DNA from: a virus
Strand: one strand, 5' to 3'
IMG/VR virus record: IMGVR_UViG_3300006752_006525
Coordinates: 1 to 64,000 of that record
Length of the DNA stretch: 64,000 nt
Both the position numbers and the translations under genes were made by a program. Under the pieces are notes generated by a model that saw nothing but the letters and a program-made list of their open reading frames with translations, did no database searches and was not told the origin of the DNA. The first letter of the stretch is position 1. Every line of letters begins with the position of its first letter. Of the stretch, positions 8,319 to 56,717 are shown piece by piece.

Positions 8319-8362
8319 TGTTACAATCGGGCAACTTAAATGTTACAATCGTGTTACAGAAT
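8319..8362. promoter_or_regulatory. 11-bp-phased direct repeats TGTTACA (OmpR/PhoB-family-like operator)
   Basis: TGTTACAATCG at 8319 and 8341, TGTTACAGAAT at 8352. Confidence 0.5.
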
Positions 8363-8369
8363 ATTTATC
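8362..8369 (-). promoter_or_regulatory. Late promoter GATAAATA
   Basis: Motif match upstream of the 42-aa ORF. Confidence 0.6.
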
Positions 8370-15008: not shown

Positions 15009-15035
15009 CTGATGTTTTAACTATTGATAAATAGA

Positions 15036-45953: not shown

Positions 45954-45983
45954 AAAAAGGGCAGTTTAACTGCCCTTTTTTTT
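45954..45983. terminator. Bidirectional rho-independent terminator
   Basis: AAAAAGGGCAG-TTTAA-CTGCCCTTTTTTTT between convergent genes. Confidence 0.9.
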
Positions 45984-45986
45984 GAC

Positions 45987-46136
45987 TTAAGGATAGAAAG
46001 GATTATCTGTGATATACTTAGGCCACTCTGTTCTTTTCTCCACAGTGGGGAAACTCAAAGTTGACACTCTTTTTACTTTCTTAAGTTGTTTTTGTACAGC
46101 ACGTCGAACGAGTACTGTCTCTTGATACTTAGTCAT
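45987..46136 (-). CDS. Riboswitch-controlled basic 49-aa peptide (MTKYQETVLVRRAVQKQLKKVKRVSTLSFPTVEKRTEWPKYITDNPFYP)
   Basis: AGGAGA RBS 5 nt before ATG; ends at the terminator; absent from the ORF track. Confidence 0.75.
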   Translation of the reverse strand: MTKYQETVLVRRAVQKQLKKVKRVSTLSFPTVEKRTEWPKYITDNPFYP

Positions 46137-46157
46137 GTCATTCTCCTATCGGAAAAT

Positions 46158-46206
46158 GCGTTCCTTCGGCTTCATTGCCTACTTCCGTCCTTTACAGGAT
46201 GAACGT
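46158..46206 (-). ncRNA. Glutamine-I (glnA-motif) riboswitch aptamer 2
   Basis: ACGUUCA-[UCCU GUAA AGGA]-CGGAAGUA-[GGC AAUGAA GCC]-GAAGGAACGC. Confidence 0.85.
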
Positions 46207-46212
46207 AACAAT

Positions 46213-46262
46213 GCGTTCCTTCGTCACTATTGACTACTTCCGCCCAATGATTGGGTGAACGT
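46213..46262 (-). ncRNA. Glutamine-I (glnA-motif) riboswitch aptamer 1
   Basis: ACGUUCA-[CCCAA UCA UUGGG]-CGGAAGUA-[GUCA AUAG UGAC]-GAAGGAACGC. Confidence 0.85.
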
Positions 46263-46268
46263 ATAAAA

Positions 46269-46276
46269 TATTTATC
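46269..46276 (-). promoter_or_regulatory. Late promoter GATAAATA directly upstream of the riboswitch
   Basis: Motif 6 nt before aptamer 1. Confidence 0.7.
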
Positions 46277-46280
46277 ACTT

Positions 46281-46607
46281 TTAGGATTCTAATTGTACGA
46301 TTTTAATGGCTTCTTCTGTGCTATATGGACTTGATTCTGCCATTGGAGGCTTAGTTTCGTAGATGTTTTCATACTTTTCTACCATGTCAGCATTGATTTG
46401 TATGAATGGCTTTTCTGCTTCTGGCACATCAATCTCATCAAATATTGCATCAACAGGACATTCTGGTACACACAATCCACAATCAATACATTCATCTGGA
46501 TCTATGACCAACATATTTGGTCCTTCATAAAAACAATCAACAGGACATACTTGAACGCAATGTGTGTCCTTACAGCCGACACAAGCACTAGTTACTACAA
46601 ATGCCAT
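46281..46607 (-). CDS. fdxA: 7Fe/8Fe ferredoxin (FdxA-type)
   Basis: [42 protein letters not shown]. Confidence 0.92.
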
Positions 46608-46608
46608 T

Positions 46609-47211
46609 TTACCCCTTTTGAAATTTTGGTTTTAAGTCTATATGATACGTGCAAGAAAATACCAGTGTTCTTTTATCTGATAAGTTTGGTGTCATGCCCC
46701 ATGGAATATGACTTGGCCAAAACATTACCTTTGCTGGCTTACCTCTTTTAACAACATTGGATGGTGTCACTATAGGTGGCGTAGCCCAACGTTTGTCTCC
46801 AAAGTGTTCAAAGTAAACACTTGAACTTTTATCTGCACTCTCATCTACATCGAGGAACACTAATGCTGAATACCATCTAAGTCTTTCAGCATTGAGTGGA
46901 AAATTATGTTTAGGATTAATTGATATAAATTTACTATTAGCACAGGTTATATCTATTTGTGCTTGATTCAACTTATAGTAATCAAAAACTTGCTGGTGAA
47001 AAACGTTGCCAAGTATCTGTACTAGTTTCCTAGTCTTGTCAACTGTGTTGTTTTCTCCTGTGATAAATCCAAAGTTAGTTTCAATTCGAGGAAGTTTTGT
47101 ATCTACCTCAGTAATAATATCAGATATCATATTGCTATCTAATTCTAGTTGTCCATCAAAAACCAAGTCTGGAAACATAGGAGTAATATTCCACCCTAGC
47201 GATTTCCTCAT
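46609..47211 (-). CDS. 2OG-Fe(II) oxygenase-fold protein, metal ligands apparently degenerate
   Basis: [19 protein letters not shown] pattern; GTAAATA 5 nt before ATG. Confidence 0.45.
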
Positions 47212-47296
47212 ACTACTATTTACCGGCTGGCTTTAATATGCTTGACATATAATGAATGTACTGTATAATATAGTTTTTACACATAGTAGGTATGAA

Positions 47297-48736
47297 ATGA
47301 ATAAGCATTGTTTATTGTTAGGTACAATATTATTAGCCAGTTGTGGAGGCGGAGGAACATCTCCTGCTGTTGGTTTGCAACCGTTAAATCCAACACCACC
47401 TGCACCAACACCACAATTCAAAGAAGATGCAGTAGTATTATCAAATCCCAATACATATTTTACACAAAGTTGTATGGAGCCAAACGTTCAATTTGTTTTG
47501 CCTACTAAACTTAACGGTGATGAACATGTTGATTTCATAGTACACTATTGGTGTTCTGCTGATCCATGGGGTGACTCTAAACGTGAACCCACACCAGATA
47601 CACTAGTAGCATGGGCAAGTAATGGACTAGGTGGATATGATGTTGTTAACTATGAAGTGTTTAATGATTCGTATCCAAAGATAGGCTCAGCAACAAGAAA
47701 AGTTTCTGTCAAAGACATCAACAATGATGGCTTACCCGACTTTGCATTTGCTACAAACATGGAAGATGGTAGAGCAACAGGTGGTCCAGATAACCAAGAA
47801 GATGCATTGAGCAATGGTGCCTACCCTGCTATCCTATTAAGTTCTGCTGATTACAAATACACAGTCCACACTATGGGAGAAATTGATTGGGGACATGCTG
47901 TAGACTTTGCACCCAACGGTGATGCAGTTTTTGCTGGTTACTTATGGACAGCAGAGCAACAGGCATTTAGATTACAAGACAGTTCTTTTGTAGATGTATC
48001 TGATCAATATCCAGTTGTGCAAGGTAACTCGTTTAGGTTTGGTGCAGAATTGTTAGTAAACACTAACCGATTGGAAAGTGGTAATCACTCAATTGAATTA
48101 TACAACGGAAAAGAACTTTTACATGTGTGGGAAAGGCCTACATTGTTTGAAGTAGATATAGACAACCAAATGTATCCAGTATCAGATATCAATGGTAGAA
48201 AAGCAGTTGGTGGAACAGTGCCTGAGATATGTGTAATGGACTACAACGGCAAAGAAACATTTGTGATGTCTGTGCTGTCTAGTCAATTAGTATCCGGTGA
48301 GGACTTACAGGAAGATTATTACTACACCAACAGCGAATTTCTAAACGCATTACGCATTGAATTCTTCCAAGTAGAGAACAATCAATTAATAAGGATTGCA
48401 GACCCAATTGATGTAGAGTTAGACACAGCAGACTTCAACTTTATGGTGTGTGATGATATCAATGGTGACGGATTAGATGATTTGCAAATACAAAAACACA
48501 GTAATCGCATTGACAATGACAGAGATACAGGCGGTATACCTGACGTTTTATTGCAATCTTCTAGTGGTATGAACTATGTAAACACCACAGAATGGCCACA
48601 ATACAGCAGTAAAAACATGTCTACTTGGGGTATGTTACTGGATGTAAATGCTGATGGATACAGTGATCTCATGCTGTGGGAAGAAGCAGTAGACTTGGGC
48701 GATATAGAAATATATTTAGGAAACAAAGACTTATAA
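47297..48736 (+). CDS. FG-GAP/VCBS repeat lipoprotein
   Basis: Lipobox LASC-GGGG; DINNDGLPD, DINGDGLDD, DVNADGYSD repeats; TTGACA..TATAAT promoter at 47242. Confidence 0.75.
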   Translation: MNKHCLLLGTILLASCGGGGTSPAVGLQPLNPTPPAPTPQFKEDAVVLSNPNTYFTQSCMEPNVQFVLPTKLNGDEHVDFIVHYWCSADPWGDSKREPTPDTLVAWASNGLGGYDVVNYEVFNDSYPKIGSATRKVSVKDINNDGLPDFAFATNMEDGRATGGPDNQEDALSNGAYPAILLSSADYKYTVHTMGEIDWGHAVDFAPNGDAVFAGYLWTAEQQAFRLQDSSFVDVSDQYPVVQGNSFRFGAELLVNTNRLESGNHSIELYNGKELLHVWERPTLFEVDIDNQMYPVSDINGRKAVGGTVPEICVMDYNGKETFVMSVLSSQLVSGEDLQEDYYYTNSEFLNALRIEFFQVENNQLIRIADPIDVELDTADFNFMVCDDINGDGLDDLQIQKHSNRIDNDRDTGGIPDVLLQSSSGMNYVNTTEWPQYSSKNMSTWGMLLDVNADGYSDLMLWEEAVDLGDIEIYLGNKDL

Positions 48737-54035: not shown

Positions 54036-56717
54036 ATGAGTTACGTAGACGCCTTCTACGATAAGCAGAAAGATCTTATTCGCGTTGTCGAACGTATAAA
54101 CGGACAACGTCTGCTAGTGGAACACAAACCCGAATACAATTTTTATGTTGCCGATCCGAGAGGTTCGCATAGAAGTATCTATGGCGAGCCAGTTGCAGAA
54201 ATTCGCTGTAAGAATATCAAAGACTTTCGCAAGAATGTTGCTATCAATAAAACAAACAAAACGTTTGAAACTGATATCAAGCCTGTAAATAAAACATTAG
54301 CAAAGCATTATCTCAATGCTGATATCCCTAAACTACATACTGCATTTTTAGATATCGAGGTAGACTTTGATCCACAACGTGGATACAGTTCACCCGAAGA
54401 TGCATTCATGGAGATCACATCTATTGGTGTGTACTTACAGTGGATGGATGCTATGGTGTGTTTGGCTGTTCCGCCTAAGACACTTAGTTGGGGTCAAGCA
54501 CAAAACGTTGCCAGTGAATTGCAAGAAGTAATACTGTTTAAGACTGAGAAAGAAATGCTACAAACATTTCTCAACCTCATAGAAGATGCAGACATACTGA
54601 GTGGTTGGAACAGTGAGGGCTATGATATTCCTTATATTGTAAATAGGATTATCAAGGTACTGGGCAAAAGTGAATTACGTAAACTTTGTTTGTTTGATCA
54701 ACTGCCAAAGCAGAGAACATATGAAGCATTCGGTAGTGAGCGTGAGACATATGATTTAATTGGTCGTGTACACTTAGACTATATGCAACTGTATCGCAAA
54801 TACAACTATGAGGAACGACACAGTTACAGGCTGGACTACATTGGTGAGATGGAAGTAGGTGAGAAGAAGGTAGCCTATGAAGGTAGTTTGGACAGGCTTT
54901 ATAATCATGACTTCAAACTGTTCTTAGAATACAACATCCAAGACGTTATGCTGTTGGATAAACTAGATAAGAAACTACAGTTTATTGACTTAGCAAACAC
55001 TATTGCACATGATAACACAGTGCTATTGCCAACCACAATGGGTGCTGTGGCAACAACAGAACAAGCAATTATCAATGAAGCACACAGACGTGACTACATT
55101 ATTCCAGACAGAGATCGCAGTGAGCGAAAGAACACACAGGCGGCAGGTGCTTATGTTGCGTTCCCCAAGAAAGGTTTTCATGAATGGGTAGGTAGCATGG
55201 ACTTAAACAGTCTGTACCCTAGTGTGTTCAGAGCATTGAATATGGCACCAGAGACTATTGTAGGGCAACTGAGACAAGACTACACTGAAGAAGAAATCAT
55301 AAACAAGCAGACACTGGAAAAGAAATCATTTGCAGATGCATGGTTAGGTAAGTTTGGTAGCAATGAATATGAAATGGTCATGGGCAAAGACGTTAACCAC
55401 ACAATGCATTTGGATATGGAAGATGGCTCAACTGTAGAAGTTACAGGCGCCGATGTTTACAACTTAGTTTTTAATAGTGGGCAACCTTGGAATATCAGTG
55501 CTAATGGTACAATATTCAAAACAGACTTCCAAGGTATTGTTCCAGGCTTATTGGAGAGATGGTATGCAGAAAGAAAAGAGTTACAAGCAAACAAAAAGAA
55601 AGCAACCACAGATGCCGACATTGCATTTTGGGATAAGCGACAGTTGGTCAAGAAGATTAATCTTAATAGTTTGTATGGTGCTATTCTCAATCCTGGTTGT
55701 AGATTCTTTGACAAAAGAATCGGTCAATCCACAACACTTACTGGACGGGCCATTACCAAACACATGGGAGCAGAAACAAACAGAATGCTTACAGGAGTGT
55801 ACGATCATACTGGCGACACTATAGTATATGGTGACACTGACTCTGTGTACTTTACTGCAACTCCAGCATTAAAAGAAGGACAGACATTAGATATGGAGAG
55901 TGCAATTAATTTGTATGACCACATCTCAGATAGTGTTAGTTCTACTTTTCCTAAGATGCTGAAGGAACAATTTAACGTACCTTATGAACAAGGTGCAGTT
56001 ATGCAGGCAGGTAGAGAAGTAGTTGGTAGGTCAGGTTTGTTCATTACCAAGAAGCGATATGCAATCAAGTGTTTAGACATTGAGGGATATCAACCTGAGG
56101 GTGGTAAACTAAAGATCATGGGCATGGACATCAAGCGAAGTGATACGCCTGAGTTTATACAAGACTTCTTAGAAGAAGTATTAGATGATGCTCTTGATGG
56201 TAAGCCTGAAGATGAAGTATTGGATAAGATTAGAACATTTAAGAAAGGCTTCCAAGAACTAGATCCTTGGTTAAAAGGTATGCCTAAACGTGTAAACAAC
56301 TTAACAACATACAGTGAGAAACTTGCAAAGCAACGTAGAGTCGAAGCAAACAACTACAAGTTAAAACGTCTCACAGACATGGCACCAGAGAACAATATGA
56401 TACCTGGACATGTTAGAGCAAGTATAAACTGGAACGAACTTAAAAATGCACACGGTGACAACTACAGTATGACTATCATGGATGGCATGAAAGTGATTGT
56501 GTGTAGGCTTAAAAATAATCCTATGGGTTACTCAAGTATTGCATATCCCACAGATGAAATGCATATACCTGAATGGTTTAAGGATTTGCCGTTTGATACT
56601 GAAGCAATGGAGCAGGCAGTATTGGATAAGAAGATCAGCAATGTACTAGGTGCAATGAATTGGGATCTCAAACGAATTAACGAAAGTGAGGCCTTACAAG
56701 CCTTCTTTGAATTTTAA
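54036..56717 (+). CDS. Family B DNA polymerase (gp43-like)
   Basis: DIEV, GWNSEGYD, YNIQD exonuclease motifs; DLNSLYPS, KINLNSLYG, YGDTDS, KKRY. Confidence 0.97.
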   Translation: MSYVDAFYDKQKDLIRVVERINGQRLLVEHKPEYNFYVADPRGSHRSIYGEPVAEIRCKNIKDFRKNVAINKTNKTFETDIKPVNKTLAKHYLNADIPKLHTAFLDIEVDFDPQRGYSSPEDAFMEITSIGVYLQWMDAMVCLAVPPKTLSWGQAQNVASELQEVILFKTEKEMLQTFLNLIEDADILSGWNSEGYDIPYIVNRIIKVLGKSELRKLCLFDQLPKQRTYEAFGSERETYDLIGRVHLDYMQLYRKYNYEERHSYRLDYIGEMEVGEKKVAYEGSLDRLYNHDFKLFLEYNIQDVMLLDKLDKKLQFIDLANTIAHDNTVLLPTTMGAVATTEQAIINEAHRRDYIIPDRDRSERKNTQAAGAYVAFPKKGFHEWVGSMDLNSLYPSVFRALNMAPETIVGQLRQDYTEEEIINKQTLEKKSFADAWLGKFGSNEYEMVMGKDVNHTMHLDMEDGSTVEVTGADVYNLVFNSGQPWNISANGTIFKTDFQGIVPGLLERWYAERKELQANKKKATTDADIAFWDKRQLVKKINLNSLYGAILNPGCRFFDKRIGQSTTLTGRAITKHMGAETNRMLTGVYDHTGDTIVYGDTDSVYFTATPALKEGQTLDMESAINLYDHISDSVSSTFPKMLKEQFNVPYEQGAVMQAGREVVGRSGLFITKKRYAIKCLDIEGYQPEGGKLKIMGMDIKRSDTPEFIQDFLEEVLDDALDGKPEDEVLDKIRTFKKGFQELDPWLKGMPKRVNNLTTYSEKLAKQRRVEANNYKLKRLTDMAPENNMIPGHVRASINWNELKNAHGDNYSMTIMDGMKVIVCRLKNNPMGYSSIAYPTDEMHIPEWFKDLPFDTEAMEQAVLDKKISNVLGAMNWDLKRINESEALQAFFEF

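Follow-up and report, generated by a model that had tools for sequence, protein, structure and literature searches.

Analysis of a 64,000-nucleotide stretch of viral DNA, referred to here as the window (positions 1 to 64,000 of IMG/VR virus record IMGVR_UViG_3300006752_006525), revealed a compact series of elements on the minus strand between 46276 and 45950. Reading along that strand, GATAAATA, a T4-type late-promoter-like motif recognized by its sequence and from a motif list (46269..46276), is followed by two aptamers, a short hairpin, an AGGAG SD, a 49-codon ORF that would encode a basic mini-protein (45987..46136, stop codon included; recognized by its conservation in homologs), and a GC-rich hairpin. 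This last hairpin (45954..45980), with a 12-pair stem flanked by T and A runs, resembles a bidirectional intrinsic terminator, serving both the ORF and the convergent tail-fibre gene, and a GC-rich hairpin and U-run follow the ORF in every relative that we found. Judged from its sequence, the locus is a stand-alone cassette consisting of a late-type promoter, two aptamers, a predicted SD-sequestering hairpin, a 49-codon gene and a terminator; that a terminator closes the unit had already been recognized in an earlier description made from these letters without database searches (the sequence-only reading), and the 12-pair hairpin bears this out.

A whole-window Rfam scan identified two matches to RF01739, the type-1 glutamine riboswitch (glnA RNA), both on the minus strand and both above the gathering score of 35 bits: aptamer 1 at 46210..46263 (54.5 bits) and aptamer 2 at 46155..46207 (61.8 bits), with E values of 1e-9 to 1e-11 across the two for the window as a whole. 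Each aptamer aligns over the full length of the model (positions 1-53), and no non-canonical pairs are flagged in the alignment. The two units of ~53 nt have the blocks ACGUUCA, CGGAAGUA and GAAGGAACGC in common, and their hairpins differ in sequence yet pair in both units (CCCAA/UUGGG and UCCU/AGGA for the first hairpin, GUCA/UGAC and GGC/GCC for the second). P1 and the two internal hairpins meet in a three-helix junction with the conserved strands CGGAAGUA and GAAGGAAC. Among 41 distinct relatives the junction blocks are invariant, and every variant of the internal hairpins retains pairing: the first and second hairpins occur in 13 and 15 variants, respectively, in aptamer 1 and in 16 and 15 variants in aptamer 2. 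A C lies directly 3′ of P1 in both aptamers, and the one that follows aptamer 2 (46158) is kept in 41/41 relatives. By covariance-model score and covariation, the tandem RNA is a type-1 (glnA-type) glutamine riboswitch, and both aptamers presumably bind glutamine. The structure of this riboswitch type was reportedly described by Ren and colleagues in 2015.

These results uphold the central claim of the sequence-only reading, which had proposed a tandem glnA-type riboswitch from the shared blocks and the differing yet pairing hairpins and had named a covariance-model search as a check; both matches score well above the gathering threshold. The span that it assigned, 46158-46276, did capture the tandem unit but ended too early, as aptamer 2 reaches 46155, and it left out both the SD-sequestering hairpin and the ORF.

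The hairpin that follows aptamer 2 (46139..46158, minus strand) was recognized from the minimum-energy (MFE) fold and from conservation. In this 8-bp structure, CAUUUUCC (46151-46158), which begins with the C immediately 3′ of the P1 of aptamer 2, pairs with GGAGAAUG (46139-46146) over a GAUA loop. The SD, AGGAG (46143-46147), lies 6 nt ahead of the AUG and has its 3′ part covered by the hairpin, and the start codon is two bases past the hairpin. The MFE fold of the leader includes this structure (-40.8 kcal/mol, z -3.2). The duplex between tail and SD has an energy of -6.0 to -8.9 kcal/mol in 41/41 relatives, compared with -3.9 for shuffled tails, and it occurs as four helix variants with compensatory changes (CAUCU/AGAUG, CAUUUUCC/GGAGAAUG, CAAUCU/AGAUUG and CAUCU/GGAUG). 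The same tail/SD design, with other tail and SD sequences, is present in >120 viral contigs that carry this aptamer, and cyanobacterial glutamine-aptamer leaders likewise show it.

A layout of this kind has been proposed for gifB of Synechocystis, where the tail after P1 pairs with the RBS (PMC6212724). The C after P1 is drawn into a ligand-dependent long-range G-C pair, and formation of this G23-C60 linchpin pair, together with melting of the P1-attached helix, frees the RBS, such that gifB would be switched ON by glutamine (PMC11477058, PMC6212724). Since the platform in the window is the one proposed for gifB, we read the unit as a glutamine-ON translational switch. When glutamine is low, CAUUUUCC after the P1 of aptamer 2 would pair with GGAGAAUG and hide the RBS. 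Upon glutamine binding, the first C of the tail would join the core of the aptamer to form the linchpin pair, the helix attached to P1 would melt, and translation would begin. The leaders of SAR86 genes for glutamate synthase, a glutamine-using enzyme, carry the same tail/SD design at three loci, and glutamine-ON logic fits this placement ahead of a glutamine-consuming enzyme. Two aptamers in series would be expected to give a sharper response; tandem glnA RNAs were noted in 2010 (PMC2864571) and have been tied to a more switch-like response. Most likely, the two aptamers let the mini-protein be made only when glutamine is plentiful. We infer the ON direction from the platform; since, on paper, the anti-SD hairpin can form alongside the folded aptamers, secondary-structure energetics cannot demonstrate switching. 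A second anti-SD in the tail of aptamer 1 was considered and dropped as a general rule, as SD complementarity is found there in only about half of the relatives.

Other ways of wiring the switch must be weighed against this tail-based, glutamine-ON mechanism. The anti-SD could instead be GUUCAUCCUGU, the 5′ strand of aptamer 2, which in an unfolded aptamer would pair with AUAGGAGAAU; with ligand bound, that strand would be held in P1 and the SD exposed, again giving glutamine ON. Although this duplex is the strongest in the window (-12.2 kcal/mol, versus -8.9 for the tail), it is uneven over the 41 relatives (-4.0 to -12.2, mean -7.3 versus -5.2 for shuffled sequences), whereas the tail helix is uniformly kept through compensatory changes, is the one picked by the MFE fold, and is the element used in the published gifB model (PMC6212724). 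We consider the 5′-strand version unlikely; the tail is favored as the exact anti-SD partner and the 5′ strand is possible, with the same logic either way. Quite improbable, in our judgment, is an OFF switch, or control through transcription or RNA stability instead of translation initiation. Repression would be logical for the glutamine synthetase genes of marine bacteria, which follow the same aptamer with a different platform; however, only 22 nt separate aptamer 2 from the AUG, a stretch that the SD hairpin occupies and that contains no terminator-like hairpin, and in its design the platform agrees with the ON switch of gifB and with the leaders of the SAR86 glutamate synthase genes. Finally, the ORF might go unexpressed, the tandem aptamers being a non-coding RNA such as a glutamine-dependent 3′ structure on the transcript of a neighboring ferredoxin gene. 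That gene lies on the same strand and ends 4 nt before the promoter motif, so read-through is possible. We give this idea almost no credence, as the ORF has 44 variants with in-frame indels, invariant ends and an SD that is always properly spaced, and as related phages have the unit beside other genes or inverted, without the ferredoxin gene.

The relatives on which this judgment rests came from family-alignment searches, which recovered the ORF on 13 viral contigs and 47 metagenome contigs. In the 13 database homologs the start does not vary and the C-terminal motif hardly does, and the 44 distinct protein variants, despite their indels, keep both ends (N-terminus MTKYQE..RAV, C-terminus YITDNPFYP); this pattern of sequence change shows the coding potential of the ORF. 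Two RF01739 hits lie directly upstream of the ORF relative in 13/13 viral loci, which answers the survey of related phage contigs that the sequence-only reading had suggested. Tandem aptamers are likewise present in ~45 metagenome loci with enough upstream sequence, the one exception having a single aptamer by pattern. An AlphaFold model built from the family alignment predicts a helix at residues 3-25 (pLDDT above 90), with the rest at low confidence. The ORF has no family match in Pfam or PHROG, and a search of the ESM Atlas for look-alikes gave sub-threshold hits only. A comparison with 50,697 GenBank phage records gave no match, either to the DNA of the unit or to the peptide, and within the literature library searched there was no publication on the mini-protein family, its SAR86 chromosomal unit or the phage copies.

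The >120 viral contigs that share the aptamer and the tail/SD hairpin design are diverse in what follows. There, the aptamers precede at least 10 unrelated families of ORFs of 25-65 residues, most of them very basic; some families have YRG repeats of the DUF4278-like kind and many are without a recognized match. A few of these small-ORF families also occur in MAGs labelled Proteobacteria (two loci).

T4-type late promoters are recognized by a TATAAATA-like -10 element that stands a few nucleotides ahead of the transcript start and has no -35 element with it; GATAAATA, 6 nt from aptamer 1, matches this element. Ten such sites occur in the window, a number not above chance, and all are intergenic and co-directional with the next gene. 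Both tail-fibre genes are preceded by one (36334, 42308); further motifs lie at 8362-8369(-) and 15026-15033(+). A T4 gp55-like late sigma factor was not found in the 97-kb record, which represents ~27% of the genome. NATAAATA lies upstream of aptamer 1 in 34/35 distinct phage or metagenome copies, at distances of 13-32 nt, but in 0/6 of the bacterial copies described below, which supports the late promoter that the sequence-only reading had placed 6 nt upstream and suggests late timing of cassette transcription. The spacing is 13-14 nt in some copies and 28-32 nt in others, in which an extra small hairpin intervenes. Many relatives carry this extra hairpin (GUAAC, 5-7 nt, GUUAC), which begins after NATAAATA and stands 5-25 nt ahead of aptamer 1, but it is missing from the window and from the copies most closely related to it.

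What kind of phage carries this cassette? The window belongs to a 97,319-base IMG/VR record that is judged ~27% complete, from which we estimate a genome of ~360 kb, that of a giant, uncultured ocean phage. Its DNA polymerase (54036-56717) is nearest to those of jumbo phages of Proteobacteria (such as Atu_ph07, Phosso, XbC2 and CBB; 42% identity). Five related contigs have counterparts of the polymerase (72-75% identity), of the fibre genes and of further genes in the window. In these five phages, the cassette lies between a fibre gene and a 2OG-oxygenase-like gene, on the strand of the fibre gene; relative to them, the cassette in the window is inverted and adjoined by the ferredoxin gene (region 45987-47211). 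Since neither the ferredoxin gene (46281-46607) nor the gene for an FG-GAP protein (47252-48736) has a match in the five related loci, the site between the fibre and 2OG-oxygenase-like genes is variable, and since orientation and neighboring gene differ between the window and the related phages, the cassette acts like an autonomous insert that brings its own promoter and terminator. In IMG/VR the record is labelled a provirus. Only genes of phage type lie in the 33 kb past the window, including those for a carbamoyltransferase, a MoxR-like ATPase, a protein matching a PHROG labelled HNH endonuclease and a DNA ligase, and no host flank was seen there; the provirus label looks doubtful for a T4-like jumbo phage.

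The ferredoxin gene, on the minus strand, encodes 108 residues; domain matches identify the product as a two-cluster ferredoxin whose tail matches DUF3470 weakly. Its DNA is 73-86% identical to a gene in 201/201 SAR86-order genomes sampled and 70-83% identical to a gene in 28/81 other genomes of the class. Its sequence marks it as an auxiliary gene that is host-like and gammaproteobacterial in type; as 28 of the 81 genomes outside the SAR86 order match too, we rejected it as a host marker.

The cassette itself points to a host. A contig of one SAR86 MAG was found to end partway through an ORF whose beginning resembles that of the phage protein; the rest of the contig carries ordinary bacterial genes. 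Profile searches detected full-length homologs of the mini-protein in 10/201 genomes of the order to which this MAG belongs and in 0/399 other genomes of the same class. The SAR86 copies came from a riboswitch pattern scan and these profile searches; a first peptide scan of the genome collection had returned nothing, its two back-translated patterns being too strict for the SAR86 variants. These chromosomal copies have the same tandem aptamers, the same tail (anti-SD)/SD hairpin and a terminator, with 81-82% DNA identity to the window over the leader, and encode a homologous protein of 46 residues that is 48-61% identical to phage members. They lie at a conserved chromosomal site beside a zinc-dehydrogenase-like gene, with phosphatase, TonB-receptor and DsbA-like genes as neighbors, and one is on a 1.6-Mb contig. 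Where the phage and metagenome copies have NATAAATA, all six SAR86 copies instead have a bacterial-type promoter region; this promoter swap is shown by the sequence comparison. A tree built from leader and ORF groups the SAR86 copies into a single clade (100/100) among viral lineages whose branching order it does not settle, and it favors neither direction of cassette transfer. The best reading of these sequences is that the cassette is a phage version of a SAR86-order unit, in which the bacterial promoter would have been replaced by a T4-type late promoter. The shared cassette suggests SAR86 as the host of the phage without proving it. The sequence-only reading had guessed at a non-cyanobacterial host, and both the recurrence of the whole unit in SAR86-order chromosomes and the affinity of the polymerase to jumbo phages of Proteobacteria support that guess.

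How is the riboswitch otherwise deployed? According to a pattern scan in which each prokaryote species was represented by one genome, the type-1 aptamer is also common in groups other than cyanobacteria. In Cyanobacteria the aptamers are mostly single and precede DUF4278- or IF7-like ORFs. Pairs 17-18 nt apart precede ammonium transporter and glutamine synthetase genes in marine Alphaproteobacteria, and in SAR86 and other marine Gammaproteobacteria pairs spaced 3-9 nt apart, as in the phage, precede tiny ORFs in part. The earlier statement that tandem copies are frequent in cyanobacteria and marine metagenomes therefore needs a caveat: in the genomes sampled, tandem copies were typical of marine Proteobacteria, and most cyanobacterial aptamers were single. 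In several unicellular cyanobacteria (ten loci), the aptamer precedes ORFs of 49-56 residues ending ..NRQ.SML.R.A.E.G, which we take to resemble IF7 (gifA) and not DUF4278/gifB.

RF01739 matches occur in 50/101 sampled SAR86-order genomes, mostly ahead of glutamine synthetase. When the downstream genes were tallied for the 30 best SAR86-order loci, 17 encoded a GSII-type glutamine synthetase, three GSI, three glutamate synthase, four a 200-residue outer-membrane-like protein, two a 477-residue protein, and one another mini-protein. In the leaders of glutamine synthetase genes, the downstream hairpin differs from the tail/SD design. In five mini-protein-bearing genomes, the tandem pair ahead of the mini-protein is the only RF01739 match above the gathering score, and the glutamine synthetase gene has no RF01739 leader. 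Because RF01739 in the SAR86 order otherwise precedes glutamine synthetase and glutamate synthase genes, we place the mini-protein in the nitrogen-assimilation regulon. The SAR86 GSII-type glutamine synthetase and the SAR86 mini-protein have the same first five residues, MTKYE; this may be chance, or the mini-gene may have arisen when the 5′ portion of the synthetase gene, with its riboswitch leader, was duplicated.

The history of the riboswitch class raises the possibility of a cyanobacterial or cyanophage origin, with a cyanobacterial host and an ORF whose product would be a glutamine synthetase inactivating factor of a divergent IF17/DUF4278 type. It was in cyanobacteria and cyanophages that glutamine riboswitches of type 1 were first recognized (PMC6212724, PMC9964418), a DUF4278-like motif, Y-x-YRG-x-x-Y, is present in some of the ORF's relatives, and repeats in the fibre genes resemble cyanophage structural genes at the DNA level. 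Nevertheless, the Pfam model for DUF4278/IF17 (PF14105) gave no hit at E up to 10 for 13 + 3 members of the family, whereas controls, cyanobacterial and other, were hit at 7e-12 to 1e-4, and profile-profile comparison (hhalign) with riboswitch-linked DUF4278 proteins gave a probability of 8%. As homologs with identical leader architecture reside in SAR86-order chromosomes, the polymerase is nearest to those of Proteobacteria jumbo phages, and the module is unmatched in the GenBank phage records, we regard a cyanobacterial origin as very unlikely. The reading that we think likely is a SAR86-type nitrogen cassette placed under a phage late promoter, with a glutamine-ON translational switch that would yield the mini-protein late in infection and only in a glutamine-replete host cell.

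What might the mini-protein do? It probably acts on host nitrogen assimilation, as its membership in the regulon suggests, and a function comparable to that of the inactivating factors of cyanobacteria would fit. A complex prediction for two copies of the SAR86 GSII-type glutamine synthetase with the SAR86 mini-protein gave a median score of 0.31 against a mark of 0.32, in a run without controls, and counts neither for nor against binding. A more specific proposal, which we put forward tentatively and regard as doubtful, is that the mini-protein is a glutamine-induced inhibitor or modulator of a SAR86 nitrogen-assimilation enzyme, most plausibly GSII, and hence a non-homologous analogue of IF7/IF17 that a clade of jumbo phages would have captured and placed under a late promoter. 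If so, the phage could turn off ammonium assimilation, with its cost in ATP, late in infection and solely in cells already rich in glutamine; protein-based inactivation of glutamine synthetase would not be unique to cyanobacteria; and this phage clade would be among the first with a gene-level link to uncultured SAR86.

Comparison with described systems clarifies which features are new. The gifB (IF17) leader of Synechocystis belongs to the same Rfam family and has the same junction blocks and the same C after P1, and it too has a tail predicted to work as a glutamine-ON platform ahead of a small basic protein (Klaehn et al. 2018, PMC6212724). However, gifB has one aptamer in place of two in series, the phage cassette is driven by a late-type promoter and has a payload that is not DUF4278/IF17, and its lineage is that of SAR86 and phages, whereas gifB is cyanobacterial. 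Closer in setting are the glutamine riboswitches of the OM43 phage Melnitz, the Pelagibacter phage Mosig and pelagimyophage MAGs (Buchholz et al. 2022, PMC9004378), in which, as here, a type-1 glutamine aptamer resides in a T4-like marine myovirus of a non-cyanobacterial host. In Melnitz, the aptamer reportedly maps to the 3′ domain of a tmRNA gene that is in two pieces, and the host has no such riboswitch (PMC9004378), while here a tandem pair would gate a mini-protein gene, the putative host lineage has the identical unit, and the phage is a different one, of jumbo type with an estimated genome of ~360 kb. Earlier reports also describe the glnA RNA motif in cyanophages related to T4 and glnA RNAs arranged in tandem in marine metagenomes (Weinberg et al. 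2010, PMC2864571; PMC9964418); motif and tandem arrangement are the same, but those tandem copies were not assigned to SAR86 or to this peptide family. RF01739 in SAR86 MAGs has been published in passing. Already known, therefore, are the riboswitch class, its occurrence in phages including those of non-cyanobacterial hosts (PMC9004378, PMC9964418) and its tandem copies; new are the payload, the promoter swap and the SAR86 link.

Few uncultured heterotrophs in surface seawater are as abundant as bacteria of the SAR86 group, and to our knowledge very little ties specific phages to them. A cassette architecture that is shared letter-for-letter provides a testable host assignment for a clade of ~360-kb phages. 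It would also be a case in which a phage takes over a complete metabolite-sensing circuit of its host, comprising sensor, platform and payload, and alters only the promoter, such that production of one protein would hinge on both the stage of infection and the nitrogen state of the cell. Since the riboswitch in the SAR86 order otherwise fronts genes for glutamine synthetase, glutamate synthase and an outer-membrane protein, the mini-protein stands out as a specific candidate for a new small protein that regulates nitrogen assimilation, on which it would act in the host.
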